Of a DNA stretch of 64,000 bases, positions 12,185-64,000 are shown piece after piece. Position 1 is the first letter of the stretch; each line of letters begins with the position of its first letter. The notes under the pieces were generated by a model, which saw nothing but the letters and a program-made list of their open reading frames with translations, searched no databases and was not told the DNA's origin. A program made the translations under genes and the position numbers. The stretch is from Octopus vulgaris (taxonomy: Eukaryota), in NCBI GenBank assembly GCA_951406725.2, contig OX597832.1:39122001-39186000 (forward strand), written 5' to 3'.

Positions 12185-12190
12185 TATATA

Positions 12191-12259
12191 GTTCAAATTC
12201 CGCCGAGGTCGACTTTGCCTTTCCTCCTTTCGGGGTCGATAAATTAAGTACCAGTTACG
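12191..12259 (+). mobile_element. SINE family 1 internal fragment (B box onward)
   Basis: GTTCAAATTCCGCCGAGGTCGACTTTGCC...AAGTACCAGTTACG matches the full copies at 44338 and 45630. Confidence 0.85.
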
Positions 12260-12307
12260 TCTTACAGGTGTTTCTGAGATATTATGGATATCCTTTCATC
12301 AGTGACG
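12258..12307 (-). ncRNA. Type I hammerhead ribozyme motif (Penelope-like, short stem III)
   Basis: Minus strand: CGTCA-CTGATGA-AAGGATAT CCATA ATATCTCA-GAAA-CACCTG-TA-AGACG. Intact core, stem II GATAT/ATATC, stem I CGTC/GACG, GUA cleavage triplet. The pairs next to the core are imperfect. Confidence 0.65.
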
Positions 12308-14826: not shown

Positions 14827-14984
14827 TAAGGACTGTCAAAACTAAAAATACAATTCGAGGCTGCAACGCAATGAAAATATGTATAAAAGAAAACTCATGT
14901 CATTCACTGTTAGAATTGTTGATTATACTCTCATGTATATTCGAAAAATAACAGAAGAGATTAATATATATATATAAGGATATA

Positions 14985-15160
14985 AGGTGGCAATTTGACA
15001 GAATCATTAGCACGCCGGACAAGGTGCTTGGCGGCATTTCGTCCGCCTTTATGCTCTCAGTTAGAATTACCCCGAGGTCAGCTTTGCTTTCTATCCTTTC
15101 GACTAACCCCACTCCTTCAATATTTCAGGCCTTATTCCTATAATAGAAAGGATTATATAT
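14985..15160 (+). mobile_element. Diverged SINE family 1 relative
   Basis: GACAGAATCATTAGCACGCCGG...GGCATTTCGTC...GAGGTCAGCTTTGCTTTC. Similar diverged copies at 26055-26260, 60353-60540, 63420-63645 and 63650-63875. Confidence 0.7.
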
Positions 15161-22329: not shown

Positions 22330-23800
<1,471 letters not shown>

Positions 23801-25870: not shown

Positions 25871-26927
25871 ACTTTTTCACTCCCCGAGCGTTATACTAAT
25901 ACATCTGTTTGTTGTCTACACCACCTATCTTCGTCTTCTGTTTTTTTGTTTTTTTTTTTGTGAATTCTCCCCCTGGAGTCGACGTAATCGACAATTCCCT
26001 TCCTTCAAAATTTTAGGCCTTGTGCTCTTAGTAGAAAGAATTATTTTGAGACATAATAGGCTGGTGAGCTGACAGAATCGTTTGCACGACGGGAAGATGC
26101 TTGGCGGCATTTCGTCCGTCTTTACGTTAAATTCCACTGCGATTGACTTTACATGTCATCCTTTCGGGTTCGATAAAACGAGTAGCAGTTAAACACCGGA
26201 GTCGATGTGATCGACTCACCCCTCCTACGAAACTGCTTGCCTGGTGACAAAATGTTAAAACATTATTTTTAGTTATATTCGTTCCGTAACGTTTATTCGT
26301 GCTTTTTTTTTGTATTTTTTTTTTTTCAAAGGTAAATGTGTTTCCTTTTATGCGAGATCCGAATAGTCGCATTCCAATGGCTAAAACAAGAAGGAAACAA
26401 AAATGATGTCTGCACTGCCCTTCAAGAATCTCATGGCAACAGCAATGGCCACATTCGACCGATTGAAGCCATCAAAAGAGTAAAAGGGAAAATAATAAAA
26501 ATGAATGAGGTTCTCTCGTTTTTTTTTTTTTTGCTAATTCAAGTGATTTCAAATCGCCATGCATATTGATTCTCAGACAAAAATTAATCATTCTTCCGCT
26601 GAAAGGGTTAACGACAAAAGTACATGAGAAATCGAAATACGAAACTATGGAGAGAATAAAAAAAAAAAGCTAACTGCAATCAACGTGAGTTGACGATGAA
26701 GTTAAAAACAACGAGGACAAACAACACTAAAGAACAATAAAGAAACAGATAAATGAGTTGCCAGCAACGAAAAGTGATTTATTTGCCAAGACCTGCGCTC
26801 TAATTATCTTTTGATATTTTTTATTTAACTTTTGCGCGTTGTCCACGATCGATTATAATTATACATGTACACTGACACACACTGACGCACTCACGCACAT
26901 TCATACACTCACTCACATAAAAACTAA

Positions 26928-29346: not shown

Positions 29347-31431
29347 AAAGAAATATAGAATTAAAGAGAACTGAGGGAAAGAGAGAATAACTGTTTAATA
29401 AGATAAGTATGAGTAAATTTTCGCATATGAATTTAGCTATTGATGTTTCAGTTGAATGTATATATTTATATATATACTTGTTTTTGTATATGTGCGGGTG
29501 TGTCGCCTGTGTGTGTGTATGTATATGCATACAGATTGATATGTATGTATTTGTTATGTTCGTGTGTGTGTGTATATACATGTATGTGCATAGAGAGATA
29601 CACACTCGTCTGGTATGTATATGTTTTCCAATCATTTTCCGAGTTAATTATCCACAAAGATGTGCGTTCAGACATACGATAGACGTAGCCAATTATGTTG
29701 GTGTTTGCTGTTTGTTGTCATTAATTGGACTTTTTACACTGTCGCTGTAACATAAAAGCAACATTAATTACAGAAAACGCGTCCCTGTTTTATTTTCCGA
29801 AATTAATGGCAAGATCTAGTCATTAAGGGGACATGGAGATTAACTGCGAAGTTTAATTATGTCTATGTAATTGCAGGTTAGAAGGCGACACTTTTGTGTG
29901 AAATTGCAATTGGTAGATTCCACAATGAGACAGGAAAGTCTTGCGGCTTCCTACCAAACATTCTGGTTTGTTTCGGTTTAAATATACAGAAGGAAAGTTA
30001 ACGAGCGAGCCTCTGCATCATCGCGTAACCTGCGGAAAATAAAAACCAAAATACTTCAAATATTACTGTTTAGCTGTTTAAGGGGACACCAATATTGGAC
30101 AGTATTGTCCTACATATATTGTCCCACATTTACGAAAATGCCAGATACTTAGAACTGATTTGAAGCTAACAGCAATGTATTCAAACGTTTCTCTCGGCGG
30201 GCTAACGATTCTGCCAGCTCGCTGCCTTATATAGAAAAATATAAAAGAAGAGAGAATCAATACTCTCTTTTGGTATGCCACAGATTAGCGCTTCTCCTTA
30301 GACTTATCTACAGACCGTCTGAGTGTTAGTAGAGGGAGCTGTGTACCATTGAATCATTGTTACCACCATGCGCATAAACAGCTTTCTTCAGCTATGCAAC
30401 CTACATATCAGTTTGACATAAGATCATCTCACTACACTTCGAACTTACAATAATCATTACAACTGTTAACCACAGCTTCATACGAGCCATCCATTTCTCA
30501 CGTTATTCGTTTTATATACACAAACTAAGCCAACTTCGCCAAGTTGCATAAAGGCTGAAAGGTATGGACGAATAGTTTGCTGCTGCCACCAGCCATTTTC
30601 TAGTCTTCGCAGCTATTATAGCCAAGAGCTATTTTTCAACTTTCACTGTAATTACATCCACAAGTCATTTGTAGCTTACATATTTACAGCTAGACGTCTT
30701 TCTTCCGCCATTTCAACAACCGAATCTCTTAATCTCCTTTGAGCTAGTCTTAATACACGTGCTTAGCTAAATCTATACACAGAGTATTAAATTATTACTG
30801 CCAATTCCCGAAAAAGGAAACTGTATTTCCCTCCTTTTTTTCCTGGCACTCTACAATGAGAAACTGATTCATAAACATTTTCTATTAAGTATTTTACAGA
30901 TGTAATGAAAAATAATTTACTCGTATTTGTATTTCATAATTCTACAAACTTATTTCTGTATCTTGTTCTTTCGCAATAAAATATGAGTATTAAATTACTC
31001 TAAAAAAATAACGGGATTTTTATGTTAATTTTGACTTATTCTTTTATATGACCGCGAGCTGTTGTTTTATATTGGAGTGTACTGATGTTTTATATAACAC
31101 TTGAAATGCTGAGTCGTTTTATTTTCAGCTGTTCTTTTATATTACTTTCAATAATAAATATTTCTCCATATAGACTGACAGAGATATACACTGGTATTGT
31201 TCCAATATATCTTAAAACATTGTCTTCGTATCTTCATATATATGTATGTATGTACATATATATACAGTTTCGATAAGAGCCAATGCATGAAACTTTCAGA
31301 CTTTGATTAATAAAAATATAATATATTTCATATATCTTATTTTATTTACATATAATTTTTTATGGCTACACACACCCATATATATAATGTGTATGTATAT
31401 ACATATATATATATATATATAAATATATGTG

Positions 31432-31832: not shown

Positions 31833-32877
31833 ATATAAAACATGTCTGTATATTTATTTAGATATATATCTATATATAAGACTATCGATATATATATATA
31901 AATATATGTATATTTGCGTGTATATCTGTATAAACCGTGTAGTATGTACATTTTATCTATTCAGGCTTTTTTTTTGTTCATCTGGTTCTATTGTTGTCTA
32001 TCATTTCACCAAAGAACGGTCATCACTGTCTAATGCCGTTACGTCTTTGTTCTGGACATTTTTTTTTTGTTTTCGTTTTTTTTTGGTTCCGCCATATTCT
32101 CTCCTTTCCTGTCTCTCTTTCACGTAGACGCAGCGTAAATAGTTGTCTCTTATCTCAAACTAACACAAGTGAGATGCTTCAGAATCGTCAGAGAGAAGAA
32201 ATATAGAAAGGAACCATGATAATAATACCATGATTTTTATGTTCGTTTTTCTGTTTTTTACTTCAATTTTTTTTCTTTTTTTTTTTTCGTAAAGAATTGC
32301 TATTGTCTTTTCGATATTTGTAAACAATAGATCTTTGCTTTATTCCAAATTATTTTCGAGACAAAGGGAATTAAAAAAACGACGATAATGAATTGAATGT
32401 AGATAGTAAAACGAAACGACTTGGTTGACAGTTCAATACAAAATATCATCAGACTATCTATCAAATATTGTATTTAAAGGGATTCGTTCAGTGACCTGGA
32501 AAATAAGGTTACTTGGTCACTAAAAATAGGGGGTGGGTCTTTGATAACTCAAGTAGCAAGAGAAACTGTCATAGACAGCCTCAATGCGCTTGTTTCATCA
32601 GCTGGAAATAGCAGCTAAATCTCCCTCAAATCTCATTCTATGTAAAGTAATGAAAAATAATGCGATAAAAGAGAGGATTATCACGAATTGTATTATCAGT
32701 GGTATTCTCTACCAGAGTTGATCTGTGGCGAAATAATACCACCATTTCTAATAAAACCACCACTACCAAGAACAACACTAACACTACCAACAACAACAAC
32801 AACAACAACAACAAAACTAGGATCACAAACATTAACAACAAGACCACCGTACCACCGGTATCAACAACAATAACAAC

Positions 32878-33218
32878 CTATTTCTTTACTACCCACAAGA
32901 GGCTAAACACAAAGGGGACAAACAAGGACAGACAAACGGATTAAGTCGATTACATTGACCCCAGTGTGTAACTGGTGCTTGATTTAACGACCCCGAAAGG
33001 ATGAAAGGCAAAGTCGACCTCGGCGGAATTTGAACTCAGAACGTAGCGGCAGACGAAATACCTATTTCTTTACTACCCACAAGGGGTTAAACACAGATAG
33101 GACAAACAAGGACAGACAAACGGATTAAGTCGATTACATCGACCCCAGTGCGTAAGTGGTACTTAATTTAAAGACCCCGAAAGGATGAAAGGCAAAGTCG
33201 ACCTCGGCGGAATTTGAA
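32878..33218 (-). mobile_element. SINE family 1 headless tandem dimer
   Basis: Two units of about 183 bp joined at GACGAAATAC-CTATTTCTTTACT (33052-33073). Confidence 0.9.
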
Positions 33219-33544
33219 CAACAATAACAACCACCAACAGCAACGATACCAAGAGCAGCATGAATACTACTATTAACGTTACCACTACAACCACCAAGAA
33301 CGACAGCAAAAACATAAATATGAACACCAACACCAAAGCCAACAACACCACTACCCCCACCACCAACAAGAACGTCACTGACGCCGACAGCGCCACCAGC
33401 ATCAACGTCTTCGACTACAACGACGCAATTCCGTAAGTATTGAACTAAATGCAGCAAAGACACACATACACTGACTTCGAACTGCTGCTGCTGTTACTCA
33501 CAGCACTGAACTCATTGTCGTGTGGTGACTACATAGCATGATGT

Positions 33545-33647
<103 letters not shown>

Positions 33648-33672
33648 AATAATTATTATTATAATAATAATA

Positions 33673-34094
33673 TTTGAAATAGAAATCAGCAAAATGTGGA
33701 AGCTGAAGACTAAAACAATACGTGTTGTCATAGGTGCCCTGGGAATGATAGCGAAAGGGACTGATTGCTACCTAACTCAGATACCAGGAAACCCCAAAAT
33801 GGCAGAAATTCAAAAGATAGTGCTCATGGGAACTGCTCATATCCTACGCAAAATACTCTCTATGTAATCCCAAGGTTTAAAACAAACTTTTTTATTATTT
33901 TTTTTTAATTTTTATTTTTTATTTTATTTATTTATTTATTTATTTATTTATTTTATGTATTAGACAGTCACTAGTACAACACCAAAAAAAAAAACCCAAA
34001 TATATGGCACAGAACTTCCAACCGGTTGTCTCTTGAGGTCTCTGGGTGAGACTTGGAGCCAACTTGTACAGACATAAAGCAAAAGTCAAACATA

Positions 34095-34096
<2 letters not shown>
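33673..34096 (+). mobile_element. 5'-truncated R4/Dong-type (RLE) non-LTR retrotransposon 3' end within (TAA)n
   Basis: EIEISKMWKLKTKTIRVVIGALGMI...IQKIVLMGTAHILRKILSM* is the characteristic C-terminus of this clade. The 3' UTR runs into (TAA)n. A second 3' UTR piece lies at 56383-56476. Confidence 0.85.
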
Positions 34097-44109: not shown

Positions 44110-44810
44110 GTAGATGTGTGGTAAGAAGATTGCTTCCCAGCCACATGGTTCTGGGTTCAGTCCCACTGCGTGGCACATTGAGCACATGTCTTCTACTATA
44201 TTCTCAGGCCATCCAAAACCTTGTGAGTAGATTTGGTAGACGGAAACAGAATGAAGCCTTCGTATATATATATGTGTGTGCGCGCGTACTCTCGTGTGTG
44301 TATGTGTGTGTATTTGTATAAATGTGTGTGCATATGTATTTCTTTACTACCCACAAGGGGCTAAACACAGAGGGGACAAACAAGAAGAGACAAACGGATT
44401 AAGTCGATTACATCGACCCCAGTGCGTAACTGGTACTTAATTTATCGACCCTGAAAGGATGAAAGGCAAAGTCGACCTCGGCGGGATTTGAACTCAGAAC
44501 GTAACGGCAGACGAAATACCACAAAGCATTTCGCCCGGTGTGCTAACGGTTCTGCCAGCTCGCCGCCTGTGTGTGCATATGTGTGTGTGTATCTTTGTGC
44601 ATTTGTTTCTCCCAATCACCGCTTGACAACGGGTGTTGGCGAGTTTACCCTCTCGTAACTTAGCGGTTCGGCAAGAGAACCGATAGAATACGTACTAGGA
44701 TTTACAAAAGAATAAGTACAAGAGACGATTCGTTCAACTAAAATTTTTCAAGGCGGTGCCCCCAACAAGGCTGCAATCTAATGACTGAAACAAGTAAAAG
44801 ATGAAATATA
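44110..44810 (+). mobile_element. SINE family 2 copy hosting a nested SINE family 1 insertion
   Basis: 5' half at 44110-44270 and 3' half at 44590-44805. Confidence 0.85.
44338..44567 (-). mobile_element. SINE family 1, full length, 15-bp TSD
   Basis: Head GGCGGCGAGCTGGCAGAA, B box GAGTTCAAATCC. TSD TGTGTGTGCATATGT at 44323-44337 and 44568-44582. Confidence 0.95.
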
Positions 44811-45404: not shown

Positions 45405-45629
45405 AACAAGCAAACACACACAAATACACACACACATATGTACATACACATATGCCCATACTGAAACAATTTTATGTAAATACATACACACACTCCACAC
45501 CAACTACACGCGCACACACTCACTCGTACATAATCTCTCTCTCTCTATCACAAACACACATATGCACATATATATATACGTGTGTATGCAAGCATTCAGA
45601 CACAAATGAGATACATTTCTTTTATACTT

Positions 45630-45860
45630 ATTTCTTTATTACCCACAAAGGGCTAAACATAGAGGGGACAAACAAGGACAGACATAGGTATTAAGTCGAT
45701 TACATCGACCCCAGTGCGTAACTGGTACTTAATTTATCGACCCCGAAAGGATGAAAGGCAAAGTCAACCTCGGCGGAATTTGAACTCAGAACGTAACGGC
45801 AGACGAAATACCGCTAAGCATTTCGCCCGGCGTGCTAACGTTTCTGCCAGCTCGTCGCCT
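45630..45860 (-). mobile_element. SINE family 1, full length
   Basis: Highly similar to 44338-44567. Confidence 0.95.
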
Positions 45861-47523
45861 TCGATTTTATACTGATTTCTTTTATACGGATGTAACTCTT
45901 TCGTTCCAGATCAACCCTGGTGCAGAACGTATTACAATCGTGATCCACCACTTTTGTTTAGACAAAATATACCTATCTCTACACTAACAAATGCGACCTT
46001 TTTTTAAGGCAGCAAAATGTGATTAAAGGGACACCATACTGTTATTTCTAACAGAACGAGTTACATCACAAAGGACTCCCTATTCGGGTCGTACATTTTT
46101 GTCTCTTATAATACACTAATTTATTATAACATTCATTAAACTGATTTTTTACCTTAACTAGCTGAATCGTCCATACATTTTTCAGTCGTTCCTTAGCAGA
46201 GCTATAGATTTATTTTGTGGTGGTTATGGCTAACTTAACAGGTTTCAACGCCAATATATATATATACTTGTCTATATATTTGCATTGATAGTTATTTGTT
46301 AAGCTCTTCGAGTAACAATGGCGCTAGTCCTCTATTGAGGATACCCAGTGAAACGTTAAACCTCCACAGACTTATCGACCGAACTTGCCAGAGGAATTAA
46401 AAAGAAACATTAATCGTCAACAAATATTTCTATTTTCTCTCTCACAACGTGATCCAAATTTAGATTATCCGAAGTTCCATGAAATATTCTTTCATCCATT
46501 GTCTGTCAGAAAATTCTAGTCAATTTCTACGTCCTTCGATTTATAAACCAACGACTACCTCTCTGTAGGGAATCTAAACTCTAACATGAACCAGCTGAGC
46601 ATCCCAATACCTTGCATGCTCGAACGATTCAGTACAGAATGCACACGTGTATCTTCAGACTGGAAGCATGACCCAAATGCTTAGGCCGCCACTAAAGACA
46701 TCATAAAGACAGATGAGGTTTTAAAAGAAGCGATAAGTGGCTCAATATTACTGTGAGTCAATATTACTGACAAAGATTGCGTTCATTTGAGGTTATGATA
46801 GAATATACTTGCACAATGGATTAGAAGATCTTGCTACATAGTTGGAGAGCGATTATCTTAATCTCTCATGGACAGAAACTTTCTGTTTCTATACCACTCT
46901 TCCTCGTAACTGTGAGATAAACATTCTCTTATATATTTTAATTGCTTCAGTCATTAGACAGCTGCCATGCTGAAGCCCTGCCATGAGGAACTTAATCGAC
47001 CTCAATATTTGGGGTTTTTTATAAAGGTCTTGTACATATCATGTCGGTCATTTTTGCTCGAACAGCTGTATTTCGAGTACGTGAACAAACCGACACCAAT
47101 TATCAAGCGTTGGTAGGGAAAAACACAAACACGTACACATAGCATATACACTCCCAAGCACACACACATACACACACACGCACGAACGCACGCACACATA
47201 CACACACGCGCGCGGCGGGCTGTCACACCCACAGTCTACCATATTCACTCGCAAGGCATTGGTCGGCCCGAGGATATAGTAGAAAACTTTTGCCCGAGGT
47301 GCTCTGCGGTGGGAACTGAACCCGAAACCACATGGTTGCAAAGCGAGCTTCGTAGCCATACCACCATGGTTGCACCCATAAATATTTCCTATTTCCAGCT
47401 CGCCGGGATCTCTTAATATTGACTTTACTTTTACAGTTAAAATTGAAGTAAACCCTTTTCCAGCATATTATGGATGTATTGTTTGTATCTTACTCTGTGT
47501 AACACGTTTAAAGGTATCGACGA

Positions 47524-47730
47524 TCAGGTAGAAACGTTAGCACACCGAGCGAAATGCTCAGCGGTATTTCGTCTGCCGTTACGTTCTGAGTTCAAATTCC
47601 GCCTCTCATCCTTACGGGGTTGATAAATTAAGTACCAGTTACGCACTGTAATCTATATAATCGACTTAATCCGTCTGTCCGTCCTTGTTTGTCTCCTCTG
47701 TATTTATACCCTTGTGGGTAGTAACGAAAT
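47524..47730 (+). mobile_element. SINE family 1 copy with 12-bp TSD
   Basis: TSD AGGTATCGACGA at 47512-47523 and 47731-47742. Confidence 0.9.
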
Positions 47731-49003
47731 AGGTATCGACGACCTTAGACTTCCATATCAATATCTGAAGGTCCCTAGTTTTCTAAGGGAAAAACACAAC
47801 GGTGGTTTTCAGTTGCTTTCTACCGTTTTATTTACTCTTCACTCTTGCTAATCACTTTCAAATCGGTTAAGTACTCTAAGCGACATCAGGGCATGATCCA
47901 ATTGCATTTGGCCTGAGTTACACATGTCTAAGGGCAAGTAGTCTCCTCCCAGTTCTCTCATCTTTTGCTATTTGACTCATAGCCGGGGCTCTTGACAAGT
48001 ACTACCATCGGAAGAGGGAGTAGAGGTACCGAGTTCAGTTCCATTACCTGGCTCTTGGGTGTCTTAATTTGAATTCCCTCAGTTGGAAGCATTTGAACCA
48101 TACCTCCATATCTCTGTTTAAACCATATCTTCCTCTCTCTTTCGTGCCATTGATGGAGGACGTGCGGTAAACATTCATGGGGGCGACCCGTCCTAATCTA
48201 ACTGAACTATTAAAAATAAAGAACAGACAAATGTGAATGTGTCTCAAAACCGGATTATTGTATGGGCATATATGATCGCTGCTCGGCTCTACTGTAATAT
48301 TAAGAACCATGAGATTCATTTTCAGAACTAAAAAAAAAAAAAAAAGGGTCGTATTTTTCTTGATGTAGTGAGTTTACGCGACATCGCGTGTCCTGAAAAC
48401 ATAACACTTACAACAACAGACAATAACAACAACAGCATCAGTAGCAGCATCAGCAACAACAACAACAACAACATCGAAGTCGTAACGCTTATGCCTTCGA
48501 AAATGCCGTTTAGCTGACAGAGAATCGGTAATCCTCTTGTGTTTTATCGTTTAGCTTAATACTTGAGAATGTGAATAATTAAGCCTTACTATACACTTTT
48601 ATCGAATAATGCTTGAGGAAGGCCTCCATTTTTCGTGATATAATGACATAATATTCGTGAACTAAGAGTAATATTGAACGGACGATGGTTTCAGAATATT
48701 CTAGAAACCATCTATAAATAACCAACACAACTCCGTAAACAATTAAATTAGTTTTGCAATTATATATACGGAATTGTCTTCCGCTTTCGAACTGTTCGCT
48801 GTTACATAATCCCAGAGGATGTTAAAAACACGAAGGAAATGAATTATTTAATAATAAATCTATGGGCCTAAGTGGGCGAGTTTATTTTTATGTTTTAAGA
48901 TGATGCAGAACATCACAAAGGTTGTCAGCTTTATTTAACCACGACAAGTCATCGTAACCATCACCGCGGTAGCACCAGTTACGCTAGTCATCACAACAAA
49001 CAA

Positions 49004-54076: not shown

Positions 54077-54231
54077 TGTTTCTTTATTAGCCACACAGGG
54101 CTGCACACAGATAGAACAAATTACAAGGTAGAGCTTTTCTTTTGAAGGTTTAAAAAAGAAAGAAAAAAAAGGAAGGGGAGTTTCGATCAAAAGGGATCGT
54201 AAAAGGAGAGAAAGAGGACAAAAAAAGGGGG
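54077..54231 (-). mobile_element. Short 5'-truncated retroelement 3' end (probable LINE 3' UTR) with a (TATC)n tail
   Basis: Minus strand ends CTGTGTGCAGCCCTGTGTGGCTAATAAAGAAA. Direct repeat GTTAATCAAATAGATAGACAGACA at 53853 and 54232. Confidence 0.7.
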
Positions 54232-55093: not shown

Positions 55094-56304
55094 CTTTAAA
55101 CTTGGATATTTCTTAATAATTAAATGAATATATAAATTAATAAAGATTTAATAATTATAGTAATATAAATTAATTTAACTATATTGTGTATATTTTACGC
55201 ATTATAATTTTAATTATTTGGATTTTAACTTCTCCAGTAAATAGTAATTTATAGTTTTGTTCTTTCTCTTAAACTCTGATTCTAGAAGCTTAAATATATT
55301 TCGCCATTTTCATTAATACAATACCTACTTCTATATATTTATTCTATATTCTTCACGAGTTAAATTTCTTATAAACGCTAAGGCCTACGTTTTTACGTTT
55401 AAAATTCACTTAATATCTTTACTTCGATAAGTAATAAATTTTTATAAAAATATTATTGAATTTTGAATTGAATTTTGTTTGATTATTATTGTAAAAATAT
55501 TAATTTCTATATTGTCATTTGATAATTATTAGTTAAGATACGTATATTTATTTACTTGATTTTATTAGGAATTTCAAGTGTTTCGGGACCTGCTACCACA
55601 ACAGCTCCTTTATAGGATCCAATTAGCTCAAGACATCATCATCGTGAAATAGTTTTGTAAGACAAAATCTTATCTAATATGTAGGAATTTTATTTGTTAT
55701 GTAATATTGCATTTAAGTTAATACTTTTAATAATAATTGAAACTTTGATTAATTCTATAAGTGAATGTAATATTAATTCTCTATATAAATTAATTATATA
55801 GTAATTTTAACTAATTTGTGTGTATATATTTGAACCATTTTTCTATTTTTAATTCTTGTAATCATAGTTTGTAGTAGTAGTATGAATATAAGTTAGCATG
55901 AAGTTTTTTAGTATATATTACTTAATTAGAATAAGATTTAACTTAGATGTTTATTAAATAAATAAATAAATAATTTAATGTATATAGATTAATTTAAATA
56001 CATAATGTACATTATGTATTATATATATATATATTGTTTTAAATATTTTATTTTAATTACTTGTATTTGAATTTTCCAGTAATGATATACTATAGTATAT
56101 ATATATACAGGGGTACAAAGAAAAGTGAACAGCACAAGTCCAGTGCCAATTCGTTGCTTTCAGTCCCAGCAGGCCAACAGTAACCGGCCTGCGGCGGAGC
56201 CTTCCCAGCATGCATCGGATTGATCGTTCACTGCTGAACAGACCGTGCTCCGTCTTCTTCTATAATGTGGTGTCCTTTCTCATCGTCGACAACAACAGAC
56301 GAAC

Positions 56305-59429: not shown

Positions 59430-61541
59430 GCACAATCTTTACAAAACCTAATATATCAAAATAGTAGATGATTTGTAGAGGTGAAAAATCTGAGATATTA
59501 AATTGTCAGATATAACAGCTGAAGGAGAAACACATCTAAATTAGGAAACCGTTCTTGAAAATAATTAAGTGTTAGCAGTAGCAGCGCTAGCGGTGGTAAT
59601 TGTGCTGTTACAACATCAATGTATTAACCTAATATTTATGTAACAACTACTACAATAATTACGTTCAAATTCCTCTTTATCTCTGTATCTGTCTAACAGG
59701 TGTAGCTTTGTGGCTAGAGATTCGTGGCTCGTAATCATGAGGTTGTGAATGGGGTACACCTAAAAGTTTTTGCTGGGGTACACCTAAAGTTTTGTCAGAT
59801 AAATCAAGTTCAATACATATTTGTATAAATTTGGTATTATTCCATTGGTGTTTCAAAGCGAGTTGGTAGTTATCCCAGTGGTAGAGGCCAAGCGAGTTAC
59901 ACAGCCTTCGTATACGTTAAGAGTGTAATGACTCTGATCCTATACATATATATATCATCCAACAGCTTATCACAGATCAAGAACGAAAACAGCTGCAATA
60001 GAAAGTGAATAAAGGAGCCTATATATGGTCAACCTACCTGCAAGAAATAGGTGACATTTCTCCCTCAAACTACATCGTTTGTTCGGAATAATCGATGTAG
60101 GAACACTATATTTTGTTATGTAACCATAATATACTACAAGGTGTATTAAACGCATTGTAAGTCAATACCTACCATGTTAACAGGGTTATTAAAACACTTT
60201 TAAGGTTACCTCTAGAATGGGACACAGTATTAACTTATAAAATCGTTTATTATAATTTGCAGTAAATTATAGTTGCATAACGAAATACGGTGTTCCTCGA
60301 GTCTGTATTATTTACGTACCAGCTGCCAGGAATGCGTTCAATATGTAAAATTGGAGCTGGCAGAATCGCCTAAGTGACATGCCTAGCGGTATTTCGTCCT
60401 TCTTTATTTTCTGCGTTCAAATTACACCGAAGTCAACGTTGTGTTTCCTCCTTTCGGGGTCGAAAAAATAACTACCAATTGAATACTGGGGGGTCTATGT
60501 AATCCCCCCAAAATCGTTGACCTTGTGCCAAAATTTGAAATCAATATGTAAAATCGATATCTCTAATAGTGTCACAGAGATATCCATAGTAGTTATTTAA
60601 GCAATGAGTTCGTAGGCGGTTAATGGATTACATGTGGTGATGAATTAGGAGCAAGAACTCCTGAAATATGCTCATTACTTATTTTTCCATCTTCGATTAG
60701 TTTGCATTGTTTATCTTAGACTTATTTGGAAACGAAACGTCGTAACAAGTCGGTGCTACCTACAATTTCTGTTGAGATTACATTAAAAAGGAACGACCAT
60801 GATTTAGAACGCCTTTAATAACAGAGGTCACTTTGATAAGGGCTGATCAGGAGCAAAACAACAACAAGAACTTCTCTGTGGCATTTACCTATTTTTACAA
60901 ATCTGAGAAATATATTCTGCGACGGTCGTATTTCTCGCAAGAAAAAATCTTCTTCAATCGGAAATTGAAACCGAAACGCAAGCTTCGTTCGACTGCCATT
61001 CATTTCTTACTGAATGTCGCTCATTTAAACGGGGAATTTTTCTTCGTTGTTTTTGTCTTTTCATTCTTCAGAAAATTATCCTACTACTATATTTTCTTTT
61101 TCTTTATCAATATGGTAACTTGTCAAGTATTCATTAACAAGATAATAAAAGCTAAAAGTATAGGAATTGATGTAGTGCCTGCTAGCTTAGTCAATTTCTG
61201 TGTTTATATTTGGAGAAGTTATAAGTGTTATGAGTTCATAATGCCGGTTCAACTCTTAATGAAATTGGCTGTCATTGACAGGTCATGTGACTACTACTAC
61301 TACTAATACTAATACTACCACCACTAATGCTACTACTTGCAGATTATCTCTCGAATACCCACTGTTCTCTTCTATAGAATATGTTAAGTTCTTATACACG
61401 TTGTATATCTCAGATGAATTCGGCATTTAATGGTGTTGCTTAGTGTATTACTATGTGAATGCGAATATATGTACGTGAGTATGTCTGCGAACAGGTCTTG
61501 CGCTGCGTGTATGAGATTATGCCTGCGTGTGCTTGCATGTG

Positions 61542-62682: not shown

Positions 62683-63311
62683 CTATTAAAATGTGAATTT
62701 GAACTCAGAACGTAGCGGCAGACGAAATACCTATTTCTTTACTACCCACAAGGGACTAAACACAGAGGGCAAACAAGGACAGACAAACGGGTTAAATCGA
62801 TTATATCGACACCAGTGCGTAACTGGTACTTAATTTAATCGACCCCTATTAAAATGTGAATTTGAACTCAGAACGTAGCGGCAGACGAAATACCTATTTC
62901 TTTACTACCCACAAGGGGCTAAACATAGAGAGGACAAACAAGGAAAGACAAACGGATTAAGTCGATTATATCGACCCCAGTGCGTAACTGGTACTTATTT
63001 AATCGACCTCGAAAGGATGAAAGGCAAAGTCGACCTCGGCGGAATTTGAACTCAGAACGTAGCGGCAGACGAAATACCTATTTATTTATTACCCACAATG
63101 GGCTAAACATAGAGAGGACAAACAAGGACAGACAAACGGATTAAGTCGATTATATCGACCCCAGTGCGTAACTGGTACTTATTTAATCGACCCCGAAATG
63201 ATGAAAGGCAAAGTCGACCTCGGGGGAATTTGAACTCGGAACGTAACGACAGACGAAATACCGCAAAGCATTTCGCCCGGCGCGCTAACGATTCTGCCAG
63301 TTCGCCGCCTT
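62683..63311 (-). mobile_element. SINE family 1 head-to-tail multimer (one head plus repeated headless units)
   Basis: Junction GACGAAATACCTATTT repeated near 62722, 62885 and 63068. The tRNA head is present only at 63262-63311. Confidence 0.92.
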
Positions 63312-64000
63312 AATGAATCAACATAAGGAACTATGGCTTCCATATCACCAAATATTTTGCTTATCGATAGCAAATCATACAATGCGTTTTTATTATTATT
63401 ATTATATTGAAGAAGAGTAAGACTGCGAGCTGGCAGAATCGTTAGCATATCGGACAAAATGATTAGCGGCGGTATTTCTTTCGTCTTTACACCACTCTGA
63501 GTTCAAAAGCAACCGCAGTCGACTTTGTTTTTAATTCTTTCGGTTCGATAAAATAAGTACCAGTTAAACACTGGGGTGGATGTAATCGACTTACCATTTC
63601 CTTCGAAATTGCTGGTGATGTGCCAAAATATGAAACCATTATATTTAAGAACAGTGGGCCGGTTGAATCGTTAGCGTGCTGGTTAAAACGTTTAGTGGTA
63701 TGTTCTCTGTTACTTTATGTCCTGAATTCAAAATCTGTTGATATCCACTTTGCCGTTCATCCTTTCGAAAGTCGATAATGTACCAGTCAAGTAATGAATC
63801 GATATAATCGAATTCAACAAACTCTCCAACCCCTAAAATTGCTGGCCGTGTACCAAGATTCAAAACAGTAATATTGTAAATAAATATACTCGCAGCATCT
63901 CGCATACCTTCGCTATTTTGACATTTAAGAAACAAAAAACAAAAAGAAATATTATAATATGCCTCTAAAAACAAAATCCATTTTCAAACTATAAATAAAT

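Follow-up and report, generated by a model that had tools for sequence, protein, structure and literature searches.

The window considered here, a stretch of 64,000 bp of the Octopus vulgaris genome, carries at positions 62683–63311 an array of a SINE-like repeat, which lies on the minus strand and consists of a tRNA-like head, a core, and a tail. In sense order, the array reads 233 bp (headed unit), 184 bp (headless unit), 37 bp, 12 bp of non-SINE DNA, 114 bp (truncated unit), again 37 bp, and 12 bp of flank (Table 1). A dimer of the same repeat is found 30 kb away, at 32879–33219, and TRF reports a period of 184 both there (32876–33219) and at 62858–63262. In a preliminary description, both loci were presented as head-to-tail chains of headless units of about 183 bp; the chaining is confirmed, but the unit is 184 bp long and only one complete headless unit is present at each locus.

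Table 1. Features of the SINE family in the window (position 66 is counted on the reference monomer).
Feature	Positions	Strand	Position 66	Details
U1, headed unit, 233 bp	63079..63311	-	T	A-box-like and B-box-like motifs, core, tail
U2, complete headless unit, 184 bp	62895..63078	-	C	starts at monomer position 50
P1, first 37 bp of third unit	62858..62894	-	C	second successive junction; ends just past B box
Non-SINE flank, 12 bp, copied inside array	62846..62857	-
U3, 5'-truncated unit, 114 bp	62732..62845	-		other subfamily type
P2, 37 bp identical to P1	62695..62731	-	C	after third junction
Original non-SINE flank, 12 bp	62683..62694	-		counted within the array in the preliminary description
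Dimer, first unit, 157 bp	33063..33219	-		5'-truncated at B box
Dimer, complete headless unit, 184 bp	32879..33062	-	C
Dimer, 16-bp TSD, 3' copy	32863..32878	-
Dimer, 16-bp TSD, 5' copy	33217-33232	-
Headed monomer	45629..45861	-	T	13-bp TSD
Headed monomer	44337..44568	-	T	15-bp TSD
Nearly full headed monomer	47524..47731	+	T	12-bp TSD
Junction motif, exact (motif scan)	33054-33071, 62723-62740, 62886-62903	-
Junction motif, 1 mismatch (motif scan)	63070-63087	-
Second-family SINE copies (BLAST)	14983-15101, 26058-26216, 60376-60504, 63418-63593, 63665-63814	+

BLAST with the headed unit gives 17 matches in the window, three of which are headed monomers of the same family. The monomer at 45629..45861, 233 bp long, is the reference for all position numbers and for contig alignment. 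Between 99,801 and 553,828 contigs per public run align to it, which is not a measure of copy number. The family is short (<1 kb), interspersed, and present in at least 100 copies, as is characteristic of a SINE. TSDs of 12, 13, 15, and 16 bp were identified at four of the five outer insertions tested; for the outer array at 62683, no credible TSD was found, the longest match being 5 bp. An A-box-like pattern occurs in all three heads tested and a strict B-box pattern in one of four units, and neither ARAGORN nor Rfam returned a tRNA match. The head is predicted to form a 13-bp hairpin of positions 33–45 with 50–62 (head z −2.45), hence the anticodon-like stem of the preliminary description is real, though longer than stated. 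This hairpin also marks where the headless unit begins, position 50 being the base immediately 3' of its apical loop. Termination by Pol III needs a run of four T, and such a run is absent from every SINE unit scanned, so read-through from one unit into the next is possible. The label MetaSINE was considered for the family and dropped, as no likeness to the alignments of bivalve MetaSINEs, whose head is followed by a 66-bp Meta-domain, was visible by eye. A second SINE family, represented by older copies (Table 1), shares head and core with the studied one and differs in its tail.

The junction between units was matched four times in the window, each time on the minus strand, when 0.06 matches were expected and none of 100 shuffles reached four. 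This bears out the earlier observation that the same junction is used at both loci. The 5-mer GAAAT has only two sites in the monomer, one in the tail and one in the 5' arm of the head stem, which makes the tail complementary to the 3' arm of that stem. The junction had been called self-complementary, and the complementarity does exist, yet the predicted hairpin alone is weak (5 bp, −1.4 kcal/mol).

The order of parts at 62683 also reflects a nested event, since an exact 72-bp repeat (62683–62754 and 62846–62917) spans the 12-bp flank. Between U3 and U2 there are 10 mismatches and 2 gaps, against full identity over the adjoining 49 bp (Fisher p = 0.019), and U3 bears markers of another subfamily. 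Judging from these sequences, U3 probably retroposed into the end of the array in a second event, primed where its RNA matched the 37-bp stub, and the inner flank copy is likely a part of the TSD of this nested insertion. Such a retroposition into the stub would account for the internal end being present twice. The array does stop internally after the B box, as reported, since both P1 and P2 end just past it. This end is explained by priming on short target homology, a simpler cause than a circular template. Even with the nested part set aside, two successive junctions are carried by one insertion.

The base at position 66 separates the two kinds of units. C stands there in all four headless units of the window and T in all four headed ones (Fisher p = 0.029), and the contrast has the same probability (p = 0.029) when counted for three independent templates, the number of independent junction-bearing templates read at base level. 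Within one array, U1 has T66, whereas U2 has C66. Because every headless unit has C66 and every headed unit T66, a linkage known from the window units, the junction most likely arose once and was then inherited. Junctions re-made from ordinary headed RNA would be expected to give mostly T66 in headless units; the proposal that the junction is produced repeatedly, by a circle or by a pairing-guided jump, is therefore not supported by the pattern at this position. Among the units of the window, position 66 is the only base that goes with the arm. Five body markers (127, 130, 159, 197, and 202; minor states 11–46% of depth) go with the array instead: they are common to U1 and U2 and set both apart from other copies. 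Over 157 sites, U1 and U2 differ at 7, units of different loci at 10–17, and the two units of the dimer at 11. It was suggested that within-array and between-array identity should be compared; the array at 62683 (7/157) does lie below the between-locus range, but the two units of the dimer (11/157) differ as much as units of separate loci, which fits both a circle and a source chain, and such identity alone does not separate the two. Either homogenisation in source chains or a circle would give the markers shared by U1 and U2. A strict Alu-like fixed dimer does not predict body markers that track the array, so that homogenisation must be added to the chain model. The two successive junctions and the sharing of markers within arrays also speak against the descent of all multimers from one fixed-length dimeric master, which would have counted against the earlier proposal.

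How such chains are inserted is best seen at the dimer. One 16-bp TSD encloses the whole of 32879–33219, which means that the dimer arrived as one cDNA longer than a unit. It was inserted as one multi-unit piece, retroposed from a multi-unit RNA. The dimer begins at monomer position 77, a truncation compatible with a headed as well as a headless first unit. The first three bases of the 3' copy of its TSD are the first three bases of the headless unit, and at the monomer 47524..47731, the five bases past the tail are the first five bases of the headless unit. In all, the bases past the tail match the start of the next unit in two of four tail-ended insertions (5 and 3 nt, each inside the TSD), with a rough post hoc chance of 7e-5 for these two matches; of the others, one matches 4 nt after one mismatch and one has no match. 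These matches suggest that the RNA ran into the next unit and that its bases paired with the nicked target, so that an RNA running on through the junction was likely the source even of a headed monomer. The template of a headed monomer made from such an RNA would be a headed chain and not a headless circle. As to 5' ends, the two 5'-truncated copies at 12188–12260 (plus strand) and 33219 (minus strand) start 2–3 nt apart at the B box; this point, at which the 37-bp stubs stop as well, is close to the base of the predicted junction hairpin.

The target sites allow another reading, in which the endonuclease favours the position-50 site of existing copies and a new copy joins an old head by homology. 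Two TSDs do open with the same bases as position 50, and U3 is likely a copy that inserted into an array. However, the dimer starts at position 77 within one TSD, which leaves no position-50 host upstream of it; the downstream part would be the old host and so mostly T66; and the TSDs of the monomers 44337 and 45629 do not open with the position-50 site. Self-targeted insertion is thus considered very unlikely.

Of 24 public runs listed, all of them sets of assembled contigs, 14, under five organism labels, contain at least half of the monomer's words. The recurrence of the junction was followed in four of these 14, which were aligned to the monomer: X5 (label A), X4 (label B), X6 (label C), and X8 (label A; its RNA nature is a guess). 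Six runs (X15–X20), with 0.11–0.37 of the monomer words, were excluded. X4 and X6 have records of identical length and place, hence they are closely related and only partly independent. In all four runs, the six loose ends listed include one at position 50 which runs into the SINE tail. It was counted among the listed loose ends, beyond which there are 1604 further ones, in at least 1028, 1311, and 593 contigs in three runs and in at least 554 in X8, with agreement of 0.70, 0.65, 0.64, and 0.93, respectively. Among the 15 joints listed (a list biased to long contigs, with 999 further joints), the position-50 joint is also present for all four runs. Together with the single 16-bp TSD round the dimer, this genome-wide recurrence agrees with the earlier view that the junction is a property of the template. 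The junction was also described as invariant. Among the joints listed, the tail is joined to position 1 in three runs and to positions 19, 52, and 66 in four runs each, at a depth similar to that of the position-50 joint, although the letters between the joined parts are not known. Given these rarer joints, the word is too strong: the position-50 junction is dominant but not the sole one. Two of them, 45843–45627 (tail to position 19) and 45810–45629 (tail to position 52), recur in all four runs, and the latter would equal the junction shortened by two bases, a perfect palindrome. C at position 66 accounts for 31.9, 29.4, and 29.4% of depth in three runs and 30.0% in X8, being no commoner in the run guessed to be RNA than in the others. 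C66 is also read in the single junction-side consensus listed, which comes from X8 (50 contigs with a median of 11 loose letters, so that about half of the contigs reach the site). The relative depth of the head is lower in X8, though these profiles were left out, since contig depth cannot rank parts of the element and the second family shares head and core. All four runs show the tail of that second family, at 45694, as one of the major loose ends. Exact-pattern scans gave no locus in viral contigs, GTDB genomes, or metagenome contigs, and blastn of plasmids gave none.

These counts bear on local tandem duplication of DNA at each locus, as in SINE-derived satellites. In that reading, a unit shorter than the SINE and one extended terminal unit would repeat the pattern of the squamate sSats (PMC10702118, as far as its available text goes), and markers common to U1 and U2 would be expected. 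However, the same breakpoint recurs from locus to locus and, in each aligned run, in hundreds of contigs, U1 and U2 differ at position 66, and the 12 differences between U3 and U2 stand against 49 identical adjoining base pairs (p = 0.019). Duplication at each locus is accordingly regarded as extremely improbable.

The position of the junction may be related to RNA structure. When 120 start positions were tested for pairing with the unit's 3' end, starts 51–53 were the top ones in both monomers, and position 50 itself ranks 47 and 10; the junction is therefore within 1–3 nt of the best end-pairing start in the two monomers. This near-best register points to pairing, or an equivalent microhomology, as the likely guide of the junction's origin. 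For the whole headless unit, an end pairing probability of 0.78–0.89 is predicted in linear and circular folds. The tail and the start of the next unit could form a long imperfect hairpin, in which C66 is paired with a probability of 0.96 and 0.65 in two junctions. With C66, two of four junctions gain 2.1 and 1.5 kcal/mol of predicted fold stability, and the other two are unchanged. In the monomer fold, U66 (window position 45796) pairs with A29 of the head, and the partner of C66 in two junction folds is a G in the tail; each base state suits its own context.

One explanation built on this pairing is a recurrent end-to-end jump, which assumes that the RNA is cut in the apical loop of the head, that the 5' end of the 3' piece pairs with a tail, and that the reverse transcriptase jumps from position 50 to the next tail, re-making the junction many times with no circle involved. 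It would fit the place of the junction, which opens at the edge of the loop and close to the best end-pairing register, and end-to-end jumps would also give the tail-to-position-1 joints found in three of four runs among the joints listed. Template jumping is moreover a measured, low-level activity of the R2 enzyme (available text of PMC10499050). The main difficulty is position 66: an ordinary headed RNA predicts T, but three of three templates have C (chance 0.027 at a 30% share of C). The rarer joints may be adjacent insertions. A jump repeated at each insertion is therefore held to be unlikely.

The second debatable issue is the circular RNA. In its ribozyme-free form, the model assumes that a host nuclease excises headless units from chain transcripts, a host ligase closes them, and the circle is copied repeatedly; we rate it as quite unlikely. 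A more specific version, just as doubtful, would have a tRNA-processing nuclease cut at the junction hairpin and the LINE reverse transcriptase roll round the 184-nt unit; the junction stem would hold the ends for the ligase, and C66 would be selected for locking them together. The predicted end pairing, the long hairpin with paired C66, and the body markers common within arrays are all compatible with circles. So is the share of contigs with the junction loose end, at least 0.56% of aligned contigs in X8, guessed to be an RNA run, versus at least 0.19–0.24% elsewhere. However, a headed monomer and the headed U1 could not be made from a headless circle, the window loci have at most one full headless unit each, the share of C66 is unchanged in X8, and the internal array end has the simpler cause given above. 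The folds do not favour a circle either: compared with 100 shuffles, the unit folds no better (z −0.68 to +0.70), its circular fold has z of −0.43 and +0.70 with 54% of bases paired, and six junction windows, four of them picked after viewing the fold, range from −1.89 to +1.49. The preliminary description found no ribozyme in the unit, and neither Rfam nor core motifs reveal one: the window has no Rfam match at gathering score, the array has no ribozyme match at E up to 10, and the hammerhead core motif is absent from both strands of the circularised unit. Rfam matches to snoR30, HOTAIRM1_3, and mir-297 (E up to 10) were rejected, being far below gathering scores.

The absence of a ribozyme also sets the SINE apart from the non-LTR retrozymes. 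What defines these is that every unit carries a type I hammerhead and that the circles are stable (PMC7761336; bioRxiv 10.64898/2026.07.22.740005); they resemble the arrays considered here in having dispersed tandem units of 150–300 bp with GC under 50% and insertions longer than the unit. However, the studied SINE has neither a type I hammerhead nor an unusually stable self-paired fold, and its first unit has a Pol III-type head. In the squamate sSat1-3, likewise, the tandem unit is a sub-part of a SINE and a single unit at the terminus reaches as far as the end of the SINE (PMC10702118); their definition includes subtelomeric clustering and four or more middle monomers, and at the window loci no more than one full headless unit is present. 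The closest likeness is to complex SINEs. Amplification of dimeric SINEs as a whole is known, as are SINE multimers of up to eight units (PMC10702118), and in Alu and the jerboa Dip/B1 multimers, a multi-unit piece is transcribed and inserted whole (PMC3531059, PMC10702118, in their available parts), with one diagnostic base specific to the downstream unit, as position 66 may be here. In contrast to an Alu-like fixed dimer, the length is variable (monomer, dimer, two junctions plus stub), the downstream units lack the first 49 nt, and the bodies follow the array and not the position in it. The feature is a genome-wide variant of the known multimeric SINEs. No account of the junction or of headless chains in a cephalopod SINE was found in the literature searched, a search that lay outside repeat-library consensuses and most subscription papers, and the available text of PMC4758252, PMC4824008, PMC5804259, PMC9223172, PMC12988792, and PMC13282606 does not describe octopus SINE chains.

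We consider it probable, though well short of certain, that the family spreads from source genes which are open-ended chains and in which the junction is inherited from one ancient event. A putative source chain would open with one headed unit and continue with at least two headless 184-bp units. Its junction may have been made once, by a template switch or by recombination, with the aid of the 5-mer common to the tail and the head stem. Pol III would start in the head and read through the whole chain. A putative LINE reverse transcriptase would then start at any tail, or inside the following unit at a point of match between the RNA and the nicked target, and the products would be monomers, dimers, longer chains, and internal ends. 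In vitro data for R2 show that short 3' homology aids precise initiation (PMC10499050, available text). Finally, homologous switching or gene conversion is proposed to homogenise the unit bodies within source arrays; position 66, 16 nt from the edge of the homology, would stay tied to the junction.

If the chain-source reading is right, the source genes from which a dominant SINE family spreads are chains that stand between Alu-type fixed dimers and SINE-derived satellites, and this affects how the family is annotated and counted. It would also offer thousands of natural cases of the start sites of a LINE enzyme and of target homology setting 3' ends. Identical junctions at many loci do not by themselves mean circles. 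Were the circle nevertheless true, a retroelement would circularise without a ribozyme, tRNA-type cutting and ligation replacing the hammerhead, and as many as about 30% of the units in a dominant repeat family could be explained in this way.

Octopus tRNA-derived SINEs named OK, OR1, and OR2 were reportedly described by Ohshima and Okada in 1994. OK presumably had a length of about 410 bp, near the 417 bp computed here for a headed plus a headless unit, and the two-unit form, judged on this length only, may already be the published OK consensus. As far as the available text of later literature goes, OR1 and OR2 are cited as CORE-SINEs.

Several other fragments lie in the window. The 3' end of a LINE-like element at 33652–34095 (plus strand) stands between TAA-type microsatellites, with related ends near 56228–56300, and its frame resembles the C-terminus of LINEs with a restriction-like endonuclease. 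It was examined as the partner LINE and rejected, as its tail differs from the SINE tail. A 110-aa frame at 22415–22747 (minus strand) resembles a GIY-YIG endonuclease of Penelope-like elements. No Pfam match was obtained for these two transposon-like fragments, and the open reading frames listed are mostly microsatellite frames. A tail-only fragment at 54079–54120 (minus strand) is 79% alike to the SINE tail; the region up to 54140 includes a tetranucleotide microsatellite, and 54079–54140 may derive from a related family or from the partner LINE, as the 3' end of either. A head-only SINE fragment of about 42 bp (30188–30229, minus strand) lies about 150 bp upstream of a pyrimidine tract with AG that resembles a 3' splice site.
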